Below, piece after piece: positions 125-10,328 of a DNA stretch of 64,000 nt; positions within the stretch are counted from its first letter, which is position 1; each line of letters starts with the position of its first letter. The notes under the pieces are model-generated. The model searched no databases and was not told the origin of the DNA. It was given only the letters and a program-made list of their open reading frames with translations. The stretch comes from Archaeoglobus sp. JdFR-37 (GTDB lineage Archaea > Halobacteriota > Archaeoglobi > Archaeoglobales > Archaeoglobaceae). Both the position numbers and the translations under genes were made by a program. The DNA is taken from NCBI GenBank assembly GCA_002010215.1, contig MTMY01000047.1:1-64000 (forward strand). The letters are read 5' to 3'.

Positions 125-590
125 TTAAATTATTGCGTATTTGTACATTTTCATTTTTGTAATGCTACCATCACTTGTAAACTCTGATTTGGACAGGACT
201 ACGTATTTACCGGTAATTTCCTGAATTATTGAAGCTACAGCTATTGCATAAGGACAAAAAGCCTTTTCAGGTTTGAGGATATCATGAATTCCAGATTTTG
301 CTAATTTACATTTGCCCACTTTTAGTTCAAAAACATCGTCACCAATTTTTGTAAAATCTACATCCTCTATGCGACCTCTAACTATAAAAATGTTTAATAG
401 TTTCATGACATTACTTTCGAGATTTATCTACTGAATATCCAAATTTACCTAAAAACTGTGGGATTTGTTTGGCTGCAAGAATTAACGCACTTCTATTTGG
501 AGCATTAATGGAACTTCCTAAGGCATAAAGTCTCGAATGTAGGAAAAATATCGCTTCACTCTCTAATGAATTTACACTTTCCGCATCCAT
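125..590 (-). pseudogene. Frameshifted hypothetical gene, possibly a V4R-like small-ligand-binding domain
   Basis: ATG at 590 opens MDAESVNSLESEAIFFLHSRLY...GYSVDKSRK*; a 1-nt shift near 420 continues NLESNV into ORF 125..406 (GKCKLA...FCPYA). Span 466 nt = 3n+1. Confidence 0.5.
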
Positions 591-775
591 AATCAGTTGA
601 GCTATACATCTTATATAAAATATTTATCTAGGGACTATTTTCTATCAAAATCGACAATATTTCAGATCAAACTTTTTAAGTTATTGAAACTACCGTCTCT
701 CTTTTCGCCTCAGTTCCGAAAAAGATTATAATACTCTGATCAGCTAATTTTCGCTACTCTAGCATCTCTCCGTCT

Positions 776-1234
776 TTATGGGTGCAGACTTTCGATCATT
801 TTTGTATGCTTCTTTTCCCATTCTAATAATTTTGAAATAACTTCCATCACCTTTTCCATTTTACTGCCCTTATCTTCTTCATTCAGAGTCTCCATTTCTC
901 TGAGAATGTCTTTATAAAGGTCTCTAGCCATCTCCTCCACTTTTCTCAAAACATAAAGTCTTTCGTGGCCGAATAGGTCTTCAATATCGTATTCTTTGAG
1001 ACTCCTCTGAGTTTGTGGATCCTCTCCAAGAAAAAGTAGGAGATCCTCAAGGATAAGTCTGTGTAATTCTGATTCTTTGTATATCTGGAAAATTACGCTT
1101 TTTTTCTTTTTATCTTCTTCTGCGAGGTACGTTCTGAACATTACGTTTGCCTCATTCGCCTCTACTTCGATAGCTCTCTTCAGGAGTTGAACTATGAGTT
1201 TGCTCTTCAACTCAGCATCGTTCATCAAACTCAC
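776..1234 (-). CDS. Ferritin-like/rubrerythrin-type four-helix protein
   Basis: Two E...ExxH units (EVEA...ESELH; EEMA...EKKH). Confidence 0.65.
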   Translation of the reverse strand: MSLMNDAELKSKLIVQLLKRAIEVEANEANVMFRTYLAEEDKKKKSVIFQIYKESELHRLILEDLLLFLGEDPQTQRSLKEYDIEDLFGHERLYVLRKVEEMARDLYKDILREMETLNEEDKGSKMEKVMEVISKLLEWEKKHTKMIESLHP

Positions 1235-1247
1235 GCTAGATACCCCC

Positions 1248-2301
1248 TCATAAATAAAAATATAAGAAATTAATTAAATTGAGTCTAAAATTTTTGCCAG
1301 TACTTCGGATATTTGGCTCATCAAGAAAACAGAGTGGTCTGTGAGAGTGTCTGAGCTTCATCCTCACTCTCGCTTTGAGAGGAAGAAGAATATCATGATG
1401 CTGCAGGCATCTGACAGTCTCACCAGACGGCAGGAGAATCGTGTAGAGGTGGTGCACTCCCTGAAACACTCTCTCCACAATCACTCCTTCTCCATCCTTA
1501 TTTTCTTCAATATCAATGAAATCTGGTCTAATCAGAACTTTAACAATATCTCCCTCTGAGAATGATCCTTCAGCCCCAAATTCACCCAGAATTGTGACAA
1601 TTACTCCGTTCTCAACTCTCCCTTCAATAAAGTCTGCAATGCCAACAAACTGTGCTACGAAAGTAGTTGCAGGCATGTGAAAAACCGCCTCAGGAGTGCC
1701 GACCTGCTTAAGCCTGCCCTCTCTCATAACACCTGTCCTGTCTGCCATGAATAAACCCCCCTCCTGATCATGGGTGACGAAGATTGCCGTGATTCCAGCT
1801 TCCGAAAGCATCTTTCTGATATCTGTCCTTATCTTCTTCCTGAGATCGACGTCGAGGTTTGAAAACGGCTCATCCAGAAGAATTACCTCCGGCTCAGAAG
1901 CAAGAGAACGGGCAATAGCAACCCTCTGCTGCTGCCCGCTTGAAAGCTCGTGTGGGTACCGTTCCTCCATTCCGGAAAGCCCAACAAGTTCCAAGGATTC
2001 TCTGATTCTCCTCCTCACTTCATTCTTTCCGAGGTTTCTCAGTCCAAACGCCACGTTTTCATAGACAGTCATGTGGGGAAAGAGTGCGTAATCCTGAAAG
2101 ACTATGTCAACCTTCCTCTTCTCAGGCGGTACCCAGATGCTTTTTCCTGCAACAGACATGGTACCTATCTCAACCTTCCCGCTATCTGGCTTTTCAAGCC
2201 CGGCAATCAGTTTTAGCGTTGTTGTCTTGCCACAGCTAGAGGGGCCGAGAAGACAGAATATCTCCCCTTCTCTTTCATCTCGACTATCTGCACTGCAGCA
2301 C
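1248..2301 (-). pseudogene. Decayed Fe3+/polyamine-type ABC transporter ATPase (FbpC/PotA-like)
   Basis: VFQDYALFPHM, LSSGQQQR, LLDEPFSNLD and a TOBE tail in ORF 1248..2159; Walker A (EGEIFCLLGPSSCGKTT) lies upstream in a different frame, with a shift near 2220. Confidence 0.8.
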
Positions 2302-2328
2302 TCCTCACCTTAACACCCCCTTTGAAAT

Positions 2329-2443: not shown

Positions 2444-2923
2444 CTAAATAACAACGATCCTTCCAACCATCTGATTCTTGTGGTATTTGCACACAAGGTC
2501 GTAGCTTCCAGCCTCATTGAACTTGACAAGTATTGATTTACCTGGACCTAGTGGCTCATCGACCAGCGGCTCATCGTGGCCAGATTCGAAAATTGTAACG
2601 GTATGTGTGCCCTCTTCGTTCCTAAACTCAATAATCTGTCCTTCTTTCACCTCAATGTTTGCTGGAGAAAACTCAAAGTTCTTGAGAGTTACTGTAACAG
2701 CTGGCTCACCTTCATCAACAACCACAGCCTCTTCATGAGCCTCAGCCCCTTCTTCATGGTCTTCTTCAGCTTTTTCAGGTGTGCTTACCGGTGTGCTGGC
2801 CGGAGTACTTACTGGTGTACTAATTTCCTTAACCTCTGGTTTGGACTGCTGAGCACATCCTGCTACAAGAACTGCCAGAACCAGCAGTGCTACCAGAATG
2901 TATACTTTCCTCATATCTACCAC
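2444..2923 (-). CDS. Type-1 blue-copper (halocyanin/plastocyanin-like) lipoprotein
   Basis: Lipobox LVAGC, Pro/Thr/Glu/His linker, ligands H (GTHTV) and C-x2-H-x3-M (CKYHKNQM). Confidence 0.8.
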   Translation of the reverse strand: MVDMRKVYILVALLVLAVLVAGCAQQSKPEVKEISTPVSTPASTPVSTPEKAEEDHEEGAEAHEEAVVVDEGEPAVTVTLKNFEFSPANIEVKEGQIIEFRNEEGTHTVTIFESGHDEPLVDEPLGPGKSILVKFNEAGSYDLVCKYHKNQMVGRIVVI

Positions 2924-2944
2924 CTCCTTTTATTTATCTCTTAT

Positions 2945-3412
2945 TCATCTCACCTCAAAAAACACCGAATCACCCAATACGGGCTGAGAAGGACCTTCAC
3001 CCACCATAGGGATGACGGTGTATCTGCCTTCGGGAGCGTCCTTACCTACATAAACTTCAAATGTTGCCTTCTGATTTTCTCCAATCACCCCTTCTTTAAC
3101 CGCGTAGATCTCCCCTTTAGGTGTGTAAATGACAATTTTTGCATAGAATCCAGAGTAGTCCATTTTCATTCCGGGAGCAAGGGCGTACACGGTTATCGAT
3201 AGCTTGGATGGCTTAGTGATGACGTTCTGGCTAACCAGTGCTGTAGGCTCCAACATATCTACCATCATCTGGCGCATTTCCTTCATGCGTTCTGTATTCT
3301 CATTTATTGGTTCATTTGTTATAGCCGTGTATCCCGATGTAATAGCCCAACTCGCTAGTATTAACACAAAAAACAAAATAGGGGGGAATTTTAAGACTTT
3401 ACCGAATCCCAT
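2945..3412 (-). CDS. Exported/membrane-anchored hypothetical protein with Met-rich segment and beta-rich domain
   Basis: N-terminal hydrophobic helix; RMKEMRQMMVDML; co-oriented within the operon. Confidence 0.6.
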   Translation of the reverse strand: MGFGKVLKFPPILFFVLILASWAITSGYTAITNEPINENTERMKEMRQMMVDMLEPTALVSQNVITKPSKLSITVYALAPGMKMDYSGFYAKIVIYTPKGEIYAVKEGVIGENQKATFEVYVGKDAPEGRYTVIPMVGEGPSQPVLGDSVFFEVR

Positions 3413-3414
3413 TT

Positions 3415-3822
3415 TTATTCACCCTCCACAATTATAACCCCTTTCATGAAATTATGCATGGGGCTGCACATTATCGTACACTTGAATACGTAAACACCTT
3501 CCTTATCCGCAACAAATTCAAAAGCCTTCTTTTCTCCAGGCTTTATTTCCCCAAGATCCACCCCTAGACTTTTTATTGTGAAGCCGTGGGTTACATCCAT
3601 CCCTTCTACAACAATCCTGACCTTTTCTCCTTTTTTCACCTTTATTACGCTGGGTTCAAAACCTCCTGCTTCTTTTACTTGTGCTCTGATAACAATGGTT
3701 TTGGGTTCTTTCTTCTCAGGATTAAGCACATCATCCCACATCGGAAGGAAAATGGCTGTTACTGATAGAACCACCAGCATTAAAGCCAAACCCTCAAACA
3801 ATACAATACCCTTCCTAGACAT
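3415..3822 (-). CDS. Membrane-anchored CuA-type cupredoxin (cytochrome c oxidase subunit II/NosZ C-domain-like)
   Basis: One TM helix, DVTHGF, and C-x3-C-x3-H-x2-M (CTIMCSPMHNFM). Confidence 0.8.
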   Translation of the reverse strand: MSRKGIVLFEGLALMLVVLSVTAIFLPMWDDVLNPEKKEPKTIVIRAQVKEAGGFEPSVIKVKKGEKVRIVVEGMDVTHGFTIKSLGVDLGEIKPGEKKAFEFVADKEGVYVFKCTIMCSPMHNFMKGVIIVEGE

Positions 3823-3831
3823 TTTTTCACC

Positions 3832-5856
3832 TCATCCTGCAACTATCCAAACGAATACCAGTCCAGCCATTGTATGGAGAATACCCATGACCAAAGTCGC
3901 TCTAAAGGCTTTAGCATGGTCGTTGAGGAGTTCCCTGGCTATATTATATGTGGTATTTATAGCTAGGGCCAATCCTATCAGCAACAGTGGTGCCTGAAGG
4001 TACGGCAATACTTCCGGACTGATTGGGTTCCACTCAAATTTCGTGCCAAATATGTTCCAGCCCCACCCTAGAGGATCAGAAAACGCAGTTATTGGGTAAG
4101 CCCAGTTCACCAGAATGAGTGAGAATGCAAAAGCGAGCCACAGGAACAATCCGTAGGGGACCAGTGCGTAACTGAAGGAAAGGAATAGTTGCCTCGTTGA
4201 TATGCCATTTTCACCTGCTAATTTCTTGGCAAGCCATGAGAATCCGTAAAATACTGCCGGATAACCCACAAGTGCAACCCCTGCTACTATTAATGCCCAT
4301 TTGAACCAGTTGTTTAGACCTTCCAGTGATGGTGTTAACAGACCAATTGTCGCCAGGTTGGCACCGTATATTATCCCCATGTTTCCCCAATCCTTAATCC
4401 AGAAGTAAGGGCCGAAGAAAACTAATTCGTAGAACACTGCCAATGTAAATCTTATGAAACCCATCCATGCTTCATCAAACTTATTCTTTGCTTTCGCAGC
4501 AATCTTGGCCAAATCTTGGCCAATCATTCTTAATTTAAGAGTCATGTTGTCGAGAGGGCAGGATCTAAGACATTCGTAGCACTGCCCACAGTAGGTATTC
4601 TCGTTGTGTCCACCAGGATATATCTTCCAAGGACACCCGTAACCGGTTGGGCTACCTCTTATGCACTCTTTTGGTCGATGTTTGTCACATACAGACTTGT
4701 CTCTACTTCTTACAGCAAAAATTGAAGCATTAGAGTGGTAACCTATGTATCCATTAGCCGGGCATATGCTTCTGCAGAAGTTTCTCTGGGGGTCAAATAT
4801 GATATGGGTAAACAAAGGTATGGCTATCAGCAATGCAAACAACAAACCAGTCACTACCGGTCTTGTAACAAGCCATGGCACGATAAGGGATATGCCAAGG
4901 AAGCTCAAGGCAGATACCCACATGTTATTAAGGCTTTTAGGCCACTTTTTACCCAAAGATGTCCACTTTCTTGGATTGTGAACACTGTATATTCTTCTTC
5001 TAGCAATCCACTCTCCGAATGCTGGAAGAGGACAGATAGTACACCAAGTTCTACTTCCAAATAAGATTAGAAACTCAACTGCCGCAAACCAGAGTATCCA
5101 CACGACGGCTATGGAGAAATTCTTGTTGCCTGTCGGGTTTCCAAAAAATCCGGCAGCTAATACTACCATGAAGATTAGGAGATTGGGTAAAATGAGGGTA
5201 AAGTGTGCTCCCCTCCACTGTAGGAACCTCTTGAGAATTGGTCCTATGACTCTTACCTTCAGCAGATCTAGATCTTTATCTAGGGAGACTCCAAGCATTC
5301 TGTTTTCTGGTGCTCGTGAAGTGTATAGGAGTGTTAAACCTGCAATAGTAAATGTTGAAGCCATTAGTATGTAAAAGAAGATGTTGGGTTTGACAATAAT
5401 ATCAGAGACCATAAATGGGTGTAGGGGGCCGCATGTTACAGAACATCGAAGCTTGATTTTTCCCGGTTTGTTGAAGGTTATCGGGCCGACTTCAACAATT
5501 TTTCCTGGTTCAATAACTATTCTATTGTCCCCAACTGCAGTAGGAGTGTATCCATCGATATAAAAGCCATGTGTGACATCTCCACTTATGACTCTAAATA
5601 CAATCCTGTCTCCCTCTTCGACTTCTAGAACACTTGGTTCTGATCCTTCAGGATATACTATTATTTTTGAACCGTCTTGAATTGCTTTTATTGCAAACCC
5701 AAACTGATATGCTTTGACAAATACTATCTTTGCATCCCCGTGGTCGTGAGGGTCGTTGAGCCACTCTTTTTCGCTAACAACATGGGCATTAACTGGGATG
5801 CCTAGAAGAAAGGCCAGTAAAATTGCTGAAATTATTACTAATATCTTACTACTCAT
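3832..5856 (-). CDS. CuA-type cupredoxin fused to a polytopic 4Fe-4S membrane protein (NosR/NapH/FixG-like)
   Basis: Signal peptide, DVTHGF + CSVTCGPLHPFM; many TM helices; C-x3-CP motifs (WCTICP, FCRSICP); ferredoxin motif CGQCYECLRSCP. Confidence 0.8.
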   Translation of the reverse strand: MSSKILVIISAILLAFLLGIPVNAHVVSEKEWLNDPHDHGDAKIVFVKAYQFGFAIKAIQDGSKIIVYPEGSEPSVLEVEEGDRIVFRVISGDVTHGFYIDGYTPTAVGDNRIVIEPGKIVEVGPITFNKPGKIKLRCSVTCGPLHPFMVSDIIVKPNIFFYILMASTFTIAGLTLLYTSRAPENRMLGVSLDKDLDLLKVRVIGPILKRFLQWRGAHFTLILPNLLIFMVVLAAGFFGNPTGNKNFSIAVVWILWFAAVEFLILFGSRTWCTICPLPAFGEWIARRRIYSVHNPRKWTSLGKKWPKSLNNMWVSALSFLGISLIVPWLVTRPVVTGLLFALLIAIPLFTHIIFDPQRNFCRSICPANGYIGYHSNASIFAVRSRDKSVCDKHRPKECIRGSPTGYGCPWKIYPGGHNENTYCGQCYECLRSCPLDNMTLKLRMIGQDLAKIAAKAKNKFDEAWMGFIRFTLAVFYELVFFGPYFWIKDWGNMGIIYGANLATIGLLTPSLEGLNNWFKWALIVAGVALVGYPAVFYGFSWLAKKLAGENGISTRQLFLSFSYALVPYGLFLWLAFAFSLILVNWAYPITAFSDPLGWGWNIFGTKFEWNPISPEVLPYLQAPLLLIGLALAINTTYNIARELLNDHAKAFRATLVMGILHTMAGLVFVWIVAG

Positions 5857-6274
5857 TTGATCCCTCCTTTAAAGTTTTATATTTCTTCCAAATTGTATCA
5901 GAGATTCTACTAAGGAGTTCAGAATAGGTTGGGTCAAGACCATCTGGATCTTTATCATCATTCCTCATTTCATCCAATTCGTCCCAGATAAACGAGGCTA
6001 GATTTTTACCTACCTCATACAGCTCGTTAGCCTCATCCACCTCTGAGGTATGCCTTCTGCCGGTAAGAGAAAGAACAGAATACAGAAGGATTGAACCACA
6101 ATAGGCTGCCTCACTTCTTTTATCAAGCCCTTCTTTTCTGGCTTTATAGATGTATTCTAGGACGTCAAGAGCGGGTTTAATGGCATCATCTCTGGAAAGA
6201 TCGTTTTTTCTGCTCCAGTACCATTTGTAAATGGCACTAGTTAGCTTCTGGATAGCTTCACTTTCCCCACCCAT
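5849..6274 (-). CDS. Hypothetical soluble helical protein, first gene of the copper/Fe-S operon
   Basis: 141-aa ORF with purine-rich RBS; its 3' end overlaps the start of the 674-aa gene. Confidence 0.6.
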   Translation of the reverse strand: MGGESEAIQKLTSAIYKWYWSRKNDLSRDDAIKPALDVLEYIYKARKEGLDKRSEAAYCGSILLYSVLSLTGRRHTSEVDEANELYEVGKNLASFIWDELDEMRNDDKDPDGLDPTYSELLSRISDTIWKKYKTLKEGSNE

Positions 6275-6330
6275 TTGTTTAACCCCCTAATCCGCCAATC
6301 CAGTCTCAGGGTATCCTTGCTTGACACAAC

Positions 6331-6366
6331 ATTTAAACAGGTACAATGATTCTCATTTTGTGAGAA
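6331..6366 (-). promoter_or_regulatory. TATA-like box plus TTCTCA-N5-TGAGAA operator of the copper/Fe-S operon
   Basis: ATTTAA (6331-6336), 13 nt, TTCTCA-TTTTG-TGAGAA (6350-6366). Confidence 0.65.
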
Positions 6367-6369
6367 CAA

Positions 6370-6894
6370 CTATCTCTTGCGATAGAATGTGTACATAATA
6401 AAAAAGATGGCTGCTAACATCAGTGCTAAAGCAATTAATCCATAATCCGATTTTGTTTTATTAGATGGGAAGAAATTTGGCTTCACATCGATGTAAAATC
6501 TATCCCCATATTGCTTTCCCTCATACTGAAACGTGTATAAAATAAAATATCTTCCTTCTTTGTCAAAGGTGTAGTTCAGTTCATAATGTCCCTTATGAGG
6601 GTTTTTTTGTAGTAAAAAGGTAGCGTAACTGCTATCTCTAGAAATTACAAGCGTAAGGTTGTTAACATCAATTGCCTCGAAGCTACTAGCATTCTGAAAA
6701 TGGAATACAATATTTACCACTTCTTCTGAAAGAGGAGAGTCTGGTTTTATTTCAGTAGTTATTAATACTCCATTTATTTTATCTGAATAATAAGTTGCTG
6801 CTAAAAGATTCATGTATATGCTTAATACAGAAATGTTTAATAATAATAGTAATAAAATAAAGGAAGTAATAGGAAGCCTTCTTGTAATTCTCAT
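6370..6894 (-). CDS. YtkA/FixH-like exported Ig-fold protein with C-terminal membrane anchor
   Basis: N- and C-terminal TM helices; KGHYELNYTFDKEGRYFI resembles the YtkA G.Y....F...G.Y pattern. Confidence 0.55.
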   Translation of the reverse strand: MRITRRLPITSFILLLLLLNISVLSIYMNLLAATYYSDKINGVLITTEIKPDSPLSEEVVNIVFHFQNASSFEAIDVNNLTLVISRDSSYATFLLQKNPHKGHYELNYTFDKEGRYFILYTFQYEGKQYGDRFYIDVKPNFFPSNKTKSDYGLIALALMLAAIFFIMYTFYRKR

Positions 6895-6918
6895 ATTATG
6901 TTAATGACTTTTTGTTAT

Positions 6919-6975
6919 ATTTAACATATGGTGACAATTCTCATAGTATGAGAATTAAACGACACATTTAATAAA
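6919..6975. promoter_or_regulatory. Divergent promoter with central perfect palindromic operator
   Basis: AATTCTCATA-G-TATGAGAATT (6936-6956); TATA-like boxes at 6919-6924 (minus) and 6968-6975 (plus), each 13 nt from the TTCTCA-N5-TGAGAA core. Confidence 0.7.
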
Positions 6976-7002
6976 AAATGGGGGGAAGAAGGTAAATCAT
7001 CC

Positions 7003-7350
7003 ATGAATGATAGAAAAAAGAGATATCTTAAGTACCTGTGTAACGAGCACTCAAATAAGATTTTGGTATCGCTGATGGAGAAAGAATTATCTGCAAATGA
7101 GATAAGCAAAGAGTGTAACATTCCCCTCCAGACAGTTTACAGAATCCTGAAGCAGCTGGAGAACGATGGGCTCATCAGAGTGAGCAGAATGAAGCTTGAT
7201 GAACAGGGCCATCACTTCAAAATATTTAAGGCTAATGTAATTCGAATTCTAGTAATGGTGGATGGGAATGGGGTTGAAATTAGGCTGTTTGAAGAAGATA
7301 AGGCAGAACGTCTCGCATCATTATGGAAGAGTCTTAAGGAGGTGAAATGA
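7003..7350 (+). CDS. ArsR/TrmB-like winged-helix transcriptional regulator
   Basis: SANEISKECNIPLQTVYRILKQLENDGLI HTH. Confidence 0.8.
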   Translation: MNDRKKRYLKYLCNEHSNKILVSLMEKELSANEISKECNIPLQTVYRILKQLENDGLIRVSRMKLDEQGHHFKIFKANVIRILVMVDGNGVEIRLFEEDKAERLASLWKSLKEVK

Positions 7351-7632
7351 GTGACCCATACAATTCTGCATGTAGTGGTTTTTACGTTTAAGATAATTGG
7401 TTTTGTTATAAGTATGTATATAGCATTATTAAGTTATCGCTCTTATATTAAGAAAGCAGATAGGTCCATGCTGTTTCTCGGTGCTGGATTTGCGGTAGTT
7501 TCTTTTGCCATTATAATCGAAGGAATAATTTACGAAGTGTTACTGTTAAGTTTAGAAATTGCTCACACACTCCAGAATGTTCTCTTCACAATAGGGATGA
7601 TACTAATATATTTATCACTAAGAGAAAATTGA
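7351..7632 (+). CDS. Small three-TM membrane protein coupled to the wHTH regulator
   Basis: Hydrophobic 93 aa; GTG start abuts the TGA of the regulator. Confidence 0.65.
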   Translation: MTHTILHVVVFTFKIIGFVISMYIALLSYRSYIKKADRSMLFLGAGFAVVSFAIIIEGIIYEVLLLSLEIAHTLQNVLFTIGMILIYLSLREN

Positions 7633-7777: not shown

Positions 7778-9916
7778 TTAGTGTAGAATTCTCATAGCAT
7801 TAAATACAGCTATCAGAGTAACACCGATGTCTGCAAATACTGCCTCCCACATGGTTGCCACCCCAAGAGACCCCAGAATGATGAAGAAACCCTTAACGGT
7901 CAGAGCAAACCCTATGTTCTGCCAGACTATATGCTGGGTTCGCCTTGCTATTCTGATGGATTTTGGTACTTTTGATGGCATATCGTCCATTATAACAACA
8001 TCTGCCACCTCTATTGCAGCTTCACTTCCAAGCCCACCCATGGCTATTCCAACGTCTGCTCTCGCAATAACGGGGGCATCATTTATTCCATCTCCAGCAA
8101 AGGCAACTCTACCGTTTCTACCTTTAAGCCCCTCTACAACCCTCACTTTATCTTCAGGCAGGAGTTCAGCATAGTATTCATCCACTTCAAGCTTATCTGC
8201 CACCTTCTCTGCAATCTCCCTGCTATCTCCTGTAACCATGACAACCCTACAGCCAAGCCTTTTCAGCTCATCCACTGCTTTCCTCGCATCCTCTTTCAGC
8301 TGATCCGCCACAATAATGTAGCCTGCATAAATTCCATTTACTGCAACATGAACAATAGTCCCTTCAACATCACATGAATCGTGCTCTATGTCCATTTCAT
8401 GCATCAGGGCATCGTTACCCACAATTATTGAATAGCCATTGATCTCTGCTCTTACGCCTCTGCCAGATATCTCTTCGTAGCTTTTGACCGAGTAATTTGG
8501 GTAACTTTTAACTGAACTGTCAACCTCTCCAGAATCACCTTCTCTCCAACTTATCTCGTCCTTCTCGTAAGCCTCCACTATTGATCTGGCGATGGGATGG
8601 TTGGAGTGCATTTCCGCAAGAGCGGCGTATCTAAGCACATCCTCCTGGCTAAATCCGTTCTTCGCCACTACCTCTGCAACCCTGAAATTTCCCTTGGTAA
8701 GCGTCCCTGTCTTATCGAAGGCGACGATTCCAGCTGAACTGAGAACGTCGATGAAATTCGCTCCTTTTACAAGTATCCCTTCCCTTGCTGCCTTCCCAAT
8801 TGATGCAAAGTAGCTCAGGGGAACTGAGAGGACGAGAGCACAGGGGCAAGAGATAACAAGCAGAACTAAAGCTCGATAAATCCAGGGTGTAAAAGGTTCA
8901 CCAAGCATTACAGGTGGGATTAACGCAACAGAAGAAGCAAGAGCTATGACCGCGGGGGTATAATAGCGGGCGAAGCGGGTTATGAACTTCTCCGCCATCG
9001 CTTTTCTGCTGCCTGCTTCTTCCACAAGCTGGAGGATTCTTGAGACTGTTGAGTCGCTGAATGGCTTTGTCACTCTCACCGTGATCAGACCACCCATGTT
9101 CACCATGCCTGAAAGAACTTCATCTCCTTCAGCAACACTTCTCGGTTCTGATTCTCCTGTTAAAGCGGATGTATCGACCGCTGAGGAGCCTTCAATGACC
9201 ATTCCGTCAAGAGGTATTTTCTCTCCTGGCCTTACAACAATGATGTCTCCAACCTTCACTTCTTCCGGCTTGACTTTGATGATGTCTCCATCAACCCTGA
9301 GATTTGCGTAGGTGGGCTTTATTTCCAGCAATGCCTTTATCGACCTACGGGATTTCCCTACTGCCAAATCCTGGAAGAACTCCCCAATTCTGAAGAAGAG
9401 CATCACACCGACAGCCTCAGGCATCTCATGAATTGCAATGGCTCCAATCGTCGCAATACTCATCAGGAAGTTCTCGTCAAATATGGCTCCTTTTGTGATG
9501 TTTCTGCCAGCTTTCCAGAGTATTCTCCAACCGGCAATCAGATAAGCTGAAAAGAACAGGCTATATTCGGCTAAGGGTAGAGAGTGAAGAGTCTCACCTA
9601 AGAATATTCCAGTTAAAAATAAGGCTGAAGATGCAATAATTGAGATCAGATCTTTTTTAGGGTCCTCTCCATCTTCTCTACCTTTATCGACATGAAAACC
9701 ACCAAAGTCATCGTGCTCAACCTCCACCTCTGGCTCAACTTTTTTGATGGTTTCCACAACTTTATCAATATCTTCAGCATCCACAACAAGCTCAGAGGTG
9801 GAGAAGTTTACAGCAGCAAATTTTACTCCTTCCTGTTTTTTCAACTCTTCCTCAATCTTGACCGCACAGGTTGCACAATCAAGACCCTTCAGCTTGTACC
9901 TCTTTATTCCCTTCAC
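7778..9916 (-). CDS. cadA: Heavy-metal (Zn/Cd) translocating P1B-type ATPase
   Basis: HMA domain GLDCATC, TGES, SCPCAL, DKTGTLT, GDGINDAP. Confidence 0.92.
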   Translation of the reverse strand: MKGIKRYKLKGLDCATCAVKIEEELKKQEGVKFAAVNFSTSELVVDAEDIDKVVETIKKVEPEVEVEHDDFGGFHVDKGREDGEDPKKDLISIIASSALFLTGIFLGETLHSLPLAEYSLFFSAYLIAGWRILWKAGRNITKGAIFDENFLMSIATIGAIAIHEMPEAVGVMLFFRIGEFFQDLAVGKSRRSIKALLEIKPTYANLRVDGDIIKVKPEEVKVGDIIVVRPGEKIPLDGMVIEGSSAVDTSALTGESEPRSVAEGDEVLSGMVNMGGLITVRVTKPFSDSTVSRILQLVEEAGSRKAMAEKFITRFARYYTPAVIALASSVALIPPVMLGEPFTPWIYRALVLLVISCPCALVLSVPLSYFASIGKAAREGILVKGANFIDVLSSAGIVAFDKTGTLTKGNFRVAEVVAKNGFSQEDVLRYAALAEMHSNHPIARSIVEAYEKDEISWREGDSGEVDSSVKSYPNYSVKSYEEISGRGVRAEINGYSIIVGNDALMHEMDIEHDSCDVEGTIVHVAVNGIYAGYIIVADQLKEDARKAVDELKRLGCRVVMVTGDSREIAEKVADKLEVDEYYAELLPEDKVRVVEGLKGRNGRVAFAGDGINDAPVIARADVGIAMGGLGSEAAIEVADVVIMDDMPSKVPKSIRIARRTQHIVWQNIGFALTVKGFFIILGSLGVATMWEAVFADIGVTLIAVFNAMRILH

Positions 9917-9922
9917 TTACTC

Positions 9923-10306
9923 TCACCTGGTTTCACGTTCCTCTCCAATATGCTCCAGAGCTATGTCAAGAATAGCAGCCACATGTTCATCGTCGAGACT
10001 GTAATAAACATTTCTGCCCTTCCTCCTGTATTTCACCAGCTTTTTGTCCCTCAAAACTCTGAGCTGATGAGATACTGCTGAGACGGATAAGCCTGTAATT
10101 GTGGAAATATCGCAGGTGCAGAGTTCATGCCTGGACAAAGCGAGAAGTATCTTGATGCGAGAAGAATCGCCGAATGCCTCTAGAAATTCCGCCAGTTCCA
10201 CTATACGCTCATCTGATGGCAGGCTTGAGGTTACTGTCTCTAGATATTCCCCTGTGCTTCCTCCTTTGCACACTGGTACTCTCTCACTTTTCTCACTTTT
10301 TTCCAT
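9923..10306 (-). CDS. ArsR/SmtB (CadC-like) metal-sensing repressor
   Basis: ELCTCDI, SAVSHQLRVLR, YYSLDDEHV; likely start is the ATG at 10306. Confidence 0.88.
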   Translation of the reverse strand: MEKSEKSERVPVCKGGSTGEYLETVTSSLPSDERIVELAEFLEAFGDSSRIKILLALSRHELCTCDISTITGLSVSAVSHQLRVLRDKKLVKYRRKGRNVYYSLDDEHVAAILDIALEHIGEERETR

Positions 10307-10328
10307 ATTTGAACAATTGCTCAAATAT
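10305..10328. promoter_or_regulatory. SmtB/CadC-type operator overlapping the repressor start codon
   Basis: ATATTTGAACAATTGCTCAAATAT, a 24-nt palindrome with one mismatched pair, just downstream of a minus-strand TTATATA box. Confidence 0.75.

Follow-up and report, generated by a model that had tools for sequence, protein, structure and literature searches.

Why does an archaeal operon hold two CuA proteins and a blue-copper protein with no terminal enzyme beside them? The question is raised by a locus of Archaeoglobus sp. JdFR-37 at positions 2444 to 7632 of the window, the 64,000-nucleotide stretch of contig MTMY01000047.1 analyzed here. A reading made from the letters alone (the sequence-only reading) had proposed an undescribed heme-free wire on the outer membrane face, with its own regulator, serving an unlinked terminal enzyme, extracellular metal redox, or copper handling. 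We found that the locus has a dedicated regulon, which is well supported by sequence comparison, and we consider it rather probable that its products form a heme-free conduit leading electrons from quinol through two CuA centers and a blue-copper protein to an outward-facing reductase encoded elsewhere. The window belongs to a 1.97-Mb genome (G000) that is 94.5% complete and has a GC content of 0.448; genomes, contigs, and loci compared with it carry G, C, and L numbers.

Predicted copper and iron-sulfur proteins of the operon

The sequence-only reading had described five tightly spaced minus-strand genes with CuA, Fe-S, and blue-copper sites. All open reading frames of the locus were found where it had placed them, and the coordinates, gaps, and ligands were verified. 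The intergenic gaps of the five-gene run are -8, 9, 2, and 21 bp in gene order, and a YtkA-like gene lies 95 bp upstream of the run. All reading frames and copper ligand sets are intact, and the GC content of the locus is 0.34-0.44 versus 0.448 genome-wide. The features are as follows.

5849..6274, minus strand: 141-residue soluble five-helix protein; first operon gene, no family
3832..5856, minus strand: 674-residue CuA/NapH-NosR-like fusion; Fer4_5, CoxB, and NapH matches (Pfam/NCBIfam)
3415..3822, minus strand: 135-residue membrane-anchored second CuA cupredoxin; COX2 match
2945..3412, minus strand: 155-residue FPP-anchored protein with an immunoglobulin (Ig)/MG2-like outward domain, from homologue alignment and an MG2 lead
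2444..2923, minus strand: 159-residue type-1 (blue) copper lipoprotein; last operon gene, Copper-bind E 3e-9
6370..6894, minus strand: 174-residue YtkA-like membrane-tethered protein; weak YtkA match
7003..7350, plus strand: 115-residue winged-helix regulator; invariant C13-N-x-H16, C38, and H70-H71
7351..7632, plus strand: 93-residue DUF7521 small membrane protein; PF24365 E 2e-13
6350..6366, no strand: operator palindrome TTCTCA-N5-TGAGAA upstream of the 141-residue gene, 12 bp before a minus-strand TTTAAA box
6938..6954, no strand: operator palindrome 13 bp before the TATA-like box of the YtkA-like gene and 12 bp before that of the regulator, shared by these two divergent promoters
6888..6904, no strand: putative weaker, degenerate palindrome copy over the YtkA-like start codon; score 16.5 versus 24-28 for strong sites

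The 674-residue protein has a signal peptide, an outward CuA cupredoxin (residues 25-157), an anchor helix, and then a NapH/NosR-like domain. Nine transmembrane helices follow the CuA anchor, as counted from AlphaFold2 helices and family hydropathy; the model, computed from 106 homologues, has a predicted local distance difference test (pLDDT) score of 94. The CuA ligand set H96/C138/C142/H146/M149 is complete, and within the 106-row alignment the five ligands are intact in 69 of the 79 rows having all five positions filled. Fold and profile searches placed this domain closest to ba3 oxidase subunit II and NosZ, with a Z score of 12.2 and a root mean square deviation (rmsd) of 2.9 over 105 residues against the ba3 CuA domain. 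Queried as a whole, the model returned cupredoxin matches only, which is no demonstration of a new fold for the membrane domain; the structure searches made met no solved structure for the membrane part of a CuA-NapH-like-CuA unit. In a six-frame scan of the genome, the motif C-x3-C-x3-H-x2-M occurs only in the genes for the 674- and 135-residue proteins.

The membrane domain carries two Cys-Pro motifs, C272-x2-C275-P and C361-x3-C365-P. The CX2CP spacing of the first is invariant across the family, unlike the two CX3CP motifs of NapH/NosH. Two [4Fe-4S] motifs, C390/H393/C398/C433 and C408/C423/C426/C429, lie in an inside loop and probably represent two cluster sites, the allotment of residues to each cluster being putative. 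At position 393, 83 of the 104 rows have His and the other 21 have Cys, and 11 Cys residues of the family are conserved at 92-100%. The mean number of Lys plus Arg per loop alternates between 0.4-1.3 and 2.1-6.2 (positive-inside rule with family hydropathy); therefore, the CuA domain is predicted outside and both Cys-bearing loops cytoplasmic. This topology keeps the CuA part of the formerly proposed outer-face wire and removes the Fe-S part from it, as all loops with conserved Cys face the cytoplasm. No His in the membrane helices is invariant and none is more than 43% conserved, so the module counts as heme-free, which lends support to the idea of a heme-free copper/Fe-S module serving an unlinked partner. 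The NapH family score of the protein is 26 bits versus NapH cut-offs of 213-234, and the locus has no napG-like gene.

The 135-residue protein is a one-helix CuA protein with the motif region THGF...CTIMCSPMHNFM. It matches COX2 with E 5e-10, and among NCBIfam families it fits the NosZ CuA domain best (E 1e-17). Its ligands are kept in 14 of 18 rows and lost in four Mo-adjacent Archaeoglobaceae rows. The 159-residue lipoprotein has a cupredoxin fold with the type-1 ligands H107/C145/H148/M152, invariant in five of five orthologues; four of the 94 genomes in the order have a close orthologue, which in each of them is at the end of the operon.

The 155-residue protein had been described as Met-rich and exported. 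The Met stretch is there, although only 4 of 9 aligned Ig-type homologues share it, and the protein is membrane-anchored, with an invariant FPP anchor that bears an Ig-like domain. In L007 and L008 a third cupredoxin domain takes the place of the Ig-like one on this anchor. An MG2 match (E 2e-5) was obtained on a homologue; with a score of 0.87 and the family on 10% of members, it is a lead only. For the 141-residue protein there was no Pfam or NCBIfam match, no usable atlas-search match, and nothing in Foldseek at E<=0.001. Its AlphaFold2 model is a five-helix bundle (pLDDT 89), and a Cas11d-like identity (Z 10-11, rmsd 2.6-3.2 over 124-129 residues) was set aside as within the range of common helical bundles. 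In 12 other loci a homologue immediately precedes the fusion, and in four more it is fused to a His-bearing membrane domain; the protein is restricted to the archaeal clade of the module.

The YtkA-like assignment is a weak match. The domain scores 14.6 bits in the window (E 0.05) and 23.6 bits in the G001 orthologue (E 8.5e-5) versus a cut-off of 25.9. The 174-residue protein has three His invariant in three of three rows and no conserved Met; H65 and the motif PHKGHY are conserved. By analogy with CtaK/YtkA, which have a role in CuA assembly (PMC9145763), it is probably a CuA loading factor.

Operator and regulon

Alignment of the divergent promoters of G000, G001, and G038 revealed the palindrome TTCTCA-N5-TGAGAA. 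It occurs exactly twice in the 1.97-Mb genome, at window positions 6350 and 6938, both in this locus, against 0.17 occurrences expected. Among the spacers of 2-9 bp scanned, only the 4-bp spacer gave further exact palindromes; these three were set aside, all being inside open reading frames. A copy with one mismatch at C6:45203 lies 59 bp before a DUF63 gene. We then built an operator matrix from eight training sites, none of them the DUF63 site, and scored 1923 upstream windows of G000. The four top windows belong to the regulator (27.9), the YtkA-like gene (27.9), the 141-residue gene (24.6), and the DUF63 gene (22.8), and the next one scores 14.5.

The DUF63 gene of G000 (C6:44358-45161, L162) is single, and the family is present in 92 of the 94 genomes of the order. 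The upstream region of the G001 gene scores 22.2; none of the 30 further DUF63 upstream regions fetched exceeds 3.1, not even that of G037, although G037 has the regulator. The operator is conserved in four genomes, and the resident single-copy DUF63 gene has acquired it in G000 and G001. G038 has an extra DUF63 copy inside the operon, and its YtkA-like gene is unlinked yet has the operator at -58. In eight of eight tested relatives without the regulator pair in the locus, the operator is absent before the module (best score 5.7). The regulon comprising the operon, the regulator, the YtkA-like gene, and the unlinked DUF63 gene agrees with the claim of a regulator of its own, and the operator is the first functional lead for DUF63.

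Across 12 promoters in four genomes, the distance from the palindrome end to a TATA-like box is 12-13 bp (10 strict cases, and two TTTAAG boxes at a gap of 12), a spacing with a background of 2% genome-wide and 16% in local intergenic DNA. Because the palindrome is immediately upstream of TATA-like boxes, we propose the winged-helix protein as a probable activator; its co-occurrence with the palindrome and its autoregulatory position make it the putative binder. TFB-RF1 (PF1088), an activator of Pyrococcus furiosus, uses a 5-bp-spacer palindrome just upstream of the B recognition element and TATA box, ca. -47 to -70 from the start codon (PMC5937170). The palindrome placement is the same as here; the half-site is TCTG in TFB-RF1 versus TTCTCA here, and the targets differ. 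The DUF7521 gene is translationally coupled to the regulator, and matches stronger than E 1e-12 are found only in G000, G001, G037, and G038 among the 94 genomes. Its product is possibly the sensor for the regulator.

Two sites of G038, one on C27 ca. 420 bp from a CopD-like gene and one on C33, were rejected as regulon members for their wrong TATA spacing. Other pattern matches in G001, G015, G032, G037, and G038 are mostly inside open reading frames. A sigma-70 promoter and terminator scan of the stretch stayed at chance level, the sigma-70 model being unsuited to archaea.

Relatives and their neighborhoods

A protein search with the 674-residue sequence gave 122 matches at E<=1e-20 among 7999 scored candidates, from archaea and bacteria. 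In a quick tree of 103 membrane-domain rows, G000 falls in a 27-row archaeal clade and is paired with a Hydrothermarchaeum copy (SH-aLRT 99), not with the same-genus copy. We clustered the neighbors in 105 loci (L001-L013, L041-L047, and L058-L142; the duplicates L039 and L040 were left out). The partners vary by clade and include type II molybdenum (Mo) enzymes (L010, L012, L042-44, L047, L060, L072, L111, L112, L127, L137, L139), nosZ/nosD (L047, L068, L125, L141), NapA-like enzymes (L084, L095, L100, L122), multicopper oxidases (L128-130), a CuA-cd1 protein, multiheme cytochromes, and metal pumps. A terminal enzyme is present in 21 of the 57 loci of at least 9 kb, which are not independent and include some near-duplicates. 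In L137 and L139 the order is alpha-beta-NarJ-EbdC/Orf7-CuA-NapH-CuA, and the trio of G015 is flanked by a divergent nosZ cluster on one side and a Mo operon on the other. The sequence-only reading had held that consistent placement as a described accessory inside nos or cox operons would speak against its proposal; homologues are often accessories of nar or nos operons, which goes part of the way to such a refutation, though many are orphans. The module is also accompanied by factors for CuA assembly: SCO1 in L007/L008/L064, TlpA-like protein and DsbD in deltaproteobacterial-type loci, and the YtkA-like protein here.

The module occurs in 15 of the order's 94 genomes. Of these 15, 10 have a type II Mo alpha subunit (E<1e-130), versus 6 of the other 79, and 12 have either narG or such a subunit, versus 8 of 79; Fisher tests for module versus Mo enzymes gave small values, overstated since kin are not independent. 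narG is present in 6 and full NosZ in 2 of the 15 module genomes. All four genomes with the blue-copper gene have narG, which was found in 9 of the 94 genomes overall.

Both CuA sites are degenerate in G009, G012, G021 (C15), and G106, with HDCND/HDCNE-type sets in the fusion and lost ligands in the second protein. This lineage has an EbdC-type gene and a Mo alpha subunit directly upstream of the module, and its homologue of the 141-residue protein is joined to a membrane domain in which four His are invariant (three of three rows). That the module persists without canonical copper sites therefore fits electron transfer better than copper handling, and the lineage is a built-in natural control for what the copper sites do. 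Fusions with the four-His domain are at L043:10370-11530, L044:2657-3772, L060:2445-3608, and L042:7215-8531. The four His possibly bind heme b or another metal replacing the CuA degenerated by Asp/Asn/Glu substitutions; one of three sequences matches Ni_hydr_CYTB weakly (E 0.92).

Some loci have unusual neighbors. In Thermofilaceae, L011:1442-3211 (plus strand) encodes a 589-residue protein with an N-terminal CuA cupredoxin and a cd1 (NirS-like) beta-propeller (Pfam E 4e-99); its gene immediately precedes the module, and no CXXCH motif was flagged in it. In Nitrososphaerales, a 417-residue lactonase-type beta-propeller (L009:6315-7568) occupies the same position. An operon of CuA, pentaheme cytochrome, unknown protein, DsbD, TlpA-like protein, and CuA-NapH fusion, sometimes with a multicopper oxidase, recurs in L075, L087, L093, L098, L102, L103, L130, L133, and L136.

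Terminal enzymes of the genome

Family searches of G000 found no full nosZ, nirK, multicopper oxidase, cd1, or SCO1, no NrfA above cut-off, and neither nosD nor nosL. There was no tblastn match to EbdC/Orf7 in the genome and no Mo enzyme in the locus. The search for coxA, which the sequence-only reading had suggested along with nosZ and nirK, found one COX1-family gene outside the window (C3:88.5-90.2 kb), ca. 81 kb off on the same contig. It is NorB-like and adjoins genes for a NorC-like cytochrome, CtaB, NarK, and NarGHJI, so a cognate O2-reducing subunit I for the CuA proteins of the window is absent. On C40 there is an operon for a Tat-type II Mo enzyme of the AF0176-like nitrate/chlorine-oxyanion reductase family, with an anchor of NrfD type. 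The alpha subunit of this enzyme is 87% identical to the one encoded directly downstream of the module in G015. Two ideas were dropped at this point: replacement of a missing bc complex, as G000 has a Rieske gene, and a tie to Nor or an oxidase alone, as 8 of the 15 module genomes have no COX1-family match at E 1e-5.

The nitrate/NO cluster of G000 (C3:87000-101600; L014, L051) encodes cytochrome c, CtaB, NorB/NorC-like proteins, hemerythrin, a DsrE-like protein, NarK, NarIJHG, a diheme cytochrome c, and a formate/nitrite transporter. An HAO-like octaheme protein (C7:22217-23728) is a candidate nitrite enzyme in this genome, where NirS, NirK, and NrfA were not found. At a contig end, C42:1-7564 (L163) encodes six multiheme cytochromes together with Fe-S, NrfD-like, and Rieske proteins. 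On C1, the same-genus genome G001 encodes a heme-copper oxidase subunit I of full length (COX1 E 4e-94; L056:5630-7778) and a CuA subunit II belonging to it, which is unexpected in Archaeoglobaceae; G081 and G082 have similar matches. A COX1-family gene of G066 (L057:2159-4268) is apparently split over two frames and is qNor-like by length.

Comparison with known systems

The locus had been taken for undescribed, which does not hold for its core. The nar operon of Ca. Methanoperedens contains heme-copper oxidase subunit II (HCO II)-NapH (nine transmembrane helices)-HCO II, MPEBLZ_02039-02041 (PMC4683180), an arrangement repeated in PMC13079737. The order of CuA, NapH-like protein with five extra C-terminal helices, and CuA is the same as here; in the window, the first CuA is fused, four extra genes and a regulator pair are present, and neither narGH nor Orf7 is adjacent. 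This link to MPEBLZ_02040 concerns architecture and gene order, not sequence comparison. In Archaeoglobus fulgidus, AF0141-AF0144 are called a 'nitrate reductase-like respiratory complex' and increase 14.1-, 8.6-, 5-, and 19.4-fold on CO plus sulfate, and the same module genes stand beside nosZ in F. placidus (PMC4543118). AF0141-AF0144 form a CuA-polyferredoxin (nine transmembrane helices)-CuA operon, with AF0142-AF0144 as the core trio, which is an orphan like the one here. A protein labeled A. fulgidus by its source (P0059) is 44% identical over 96% of the 674-residue protein. The akin Archaeoglobaceae loci (L041, L045, L046, L058, L059, L061) have no genes for the 141-residue, FPP-anchored, blue-copper, or YtkA-like proteins, and the operator is absent in the three tested (L041, L046, L061). 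The core trio is thus already in print; what this copy adds is a fused and orphan form of five genes that ends in a blue-copper protein, together with a regulon. In the parts of the literature covered, including PMC9012536, we found no biochemistry of the module and no mention of this operator, no search being aimed at DUF7521, DUF63, or the palindrome. The passages concerned of the papers on A. fulgidus methoxydotrophy (PMC8322695) and A. neptunius (PMC8359953) do not mention the module genes.

Electron delivery to periplasmic reductases is a task of the membrane modules of NapH and NosR (PMC5928378). NapH, NosH, the NosR C-terminal module, and RdhC share with the window protein a membrane core with two Cys-Pro motifs, and NapH and NosR also have two cytoplasmic [4Fe-4S] motifs. 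The window protein differs in the CX2CP form of the first motif, the five extra helices, and the outward partner domain, which is CuA here, versus flavin mononucleotide-binding in NosR and RdhC and NapG in NapH. CcoG/FixG is likewise a Fer4_5-type membrane polyferredoxin with two [4Fe-4S] clusters; in contrast to it, the window protein has no cbb3 context, no fused Ig domain, and an N-terminal CuA, and no CcoG family match was listed in the Pfam/NCBIfam scans of the window proteins.

Proposed electron path and its alternatives

The operon is real and intact, and probably functional. Starting from its genes, ligand sets, predicted topology, neighborhoods, and operator placement, we propose the following path, given metal binding at the predicted sites. 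The quinol of Archaeoglobi is menaquinol. The NapH-like membrane domain would draw electrons out of the quinol pool and pass them to its own fused outward CuA, from which they would go to the second, membrane-anchored CuA and then to the blue-copper lipoprotein. The copper carriers would deliver them to a high-potential outer-face reductase whose genes lie elsewhere; the likeliest partners are the C40 Tat-type II Mo enzyme and/or NorCB. The YtkA-like protein would load CuA, and the winged-helix protein, perhaps with the DUF7521 protein as sensor of a signal, would activate its own gene, the operon, and the genes for the YtkA-like protein and, at an unlinked place, DUF63. Direction and partner are proposed as above because homologues adjoin varied outward-facing redox enzymes and co-occur with type II Mo enzymes or narG across the 94 genomes, because of the analogy with NapH/NosR and the CuA assembly factors accompanying the module, and because the C40 alpha subunit is close to a module-linked one and narG is present in all blue-copper genomes. 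The joint rise of AF0141-0144 on CO plus sulfate also argues for it (PMC4543118).

Several points weigh against this path. Neither Mo enzyme needs the module: that of C40 comes with an NrfD anchor of its own, and NarGHI takes quinol directly. A Rieske protein is encoded on C42 as well. The A. fulgidus induction came with sulfate rather than an N-oxide (PMC4543118). The Fe-S clusters are opposite the CuA face with no heme between, and are hard to fit into an outward path, and no quinol site was identified. Upstream of nar, nor, the C40 Mo operon, and the two octaheme genes there is no operator (best scores of -4.4 to 0.1 versus 22-28). Furthermore, 36 of the 57 long loci show no terminal enzyme, and both narG and a type II Mo enzyme are missing from 3 of the 15 module genomes; one of these, the single-contig G032, also has no NosZ or COX1-family match.

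The position of the Fe-S clusters would be explained by a cytoplasmic-entry or bifurcating device, in which the inward [4Fe-4S] pair exchanges with ferredoxin, the membrane domain couples to quinone, and CuA is a high-potential sink; its variants are Hocking's ferredoxin-to-menaquinone model and a split of quinol electrons between the two faces. The Fe-S loops are cytoplasmic and the most conserved part of the fusion, His in place of a Cys ligand at position 393 could tune one cluster, and the module persists where both CuA sites are lost. The authors' own model and the induction of the A. fulgidus genes on CO plus sulfate (PMC4543118) also agree with such a device. Yet no flavin- or heme-binding motif was seen, the device is purely theoretical, and no ferredoxin or donor enzyme recurs among the neighbor clusters; we regard it as unlikely. 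We find improbable a broader version, a heme-free hub that would split quinol electrons between the outward copper chain and an inward, His-tuned [4Fe-4S] pair. It would be a copper counterpart of bc1, free-standing, separately switched, and serving any outward-facing reductase, with the 141-residue protein as cytoplasmic subunit and DUF63, near-universal in the order, as assembly factor for copper membrane proteins. Another reading takes the module as a CcoG-like cupric reductase with cupredoxin copper buffers in a metal island. CcoG, with two [4Fe-4S] clusters, does reduce Cu(II) (PMC7558416), orphan Archaeoglobaceae copies lie beside CopA/CopB/ZntA pumps, a P1B ATPase is in 7 of the 57 long loci, the regulator has conserved Cys and His, and a NicO-type transporter flanks it in G037. 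However, in G000 the operator is absent before CopA, CopB, a third P1B pump, ZntA/ArsR, and NicO (scores <=1.9), the adjacent ZntA has its own ArsR and scores as a Cd/Zn type, and the four Archaeoglobaceae copies that lost both CuA sites stay in Mo-enzyme operons. A further point comes from AF0152, which we take to be the CopB of A. fulgidus. It has no row in the selected table for that organism (PMC4543118). The copper-handling role that the sequence-only reading had allowed is therefore disfavored, and we judge it improbable as well.

Electrons might also flow inward, the outward CuA and blue-copper proteins collecting them from an external donor such as Fe(II) or a Mo dehydrogenase and handing these on to quinone, much as FtrB/FtrD do in iron uptake. 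Type II Mo enzymes that have EbdC-like heme b subunits can work in both directions, the G061 copy has an FTR1 permease at a distance of 7 kb, and FtrB is among the cupredoxin fold matches (Z 10.1), although that match is unspecific. This direction is quite improbable: the step from CuA to menaquinone would be uphill, the G000 locus has no FtrA/FtrC, and the neighbors best documented in the sources cited above, NosZ and the Methanoperedens Nar, are reductases. The module may finally be a stranded passenger that arrived without its partner enzyme and has no current role, to which the patchy distribution, the pairing of the membrane domain with Hydrothermarchaeum, and the GC content of the locus would point. 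With all frames and ligands intact, the operator conserved in four genomes, and its acquisition by the DUF63 gene in G000 and G001, this is very improbable.

The locus has a wider meaning. CuA-NapH-like-CuA units are widespread and have been proposed to supply archaeal nitrate and N2O reductases with electrons. The window copy makes the unit testable apart from any terminal enzyme, with a defined operator, a candidate activator-sensor pair, and a candidate CuA chaperone. The signal of that pair would reveal the purpose of the orphan form.

Flanking genes

Downstream of the operon, window positions 125-2303 (minus strand) hold a Fe3+/polyamine-type ABC ATPase (351-residue frame) and two open reading frames of 152 (ferritin-like by eye) and 93 residues, neither with a Pfam match. 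On the other side, a Cd/Zn-type P1B ATPase with its own ArsR/SmtB regulator adjoins the locus (7778-10324). G001 is arranged likewise, and pumps similar to this ATPase flank the module in G006, G032, and G069.

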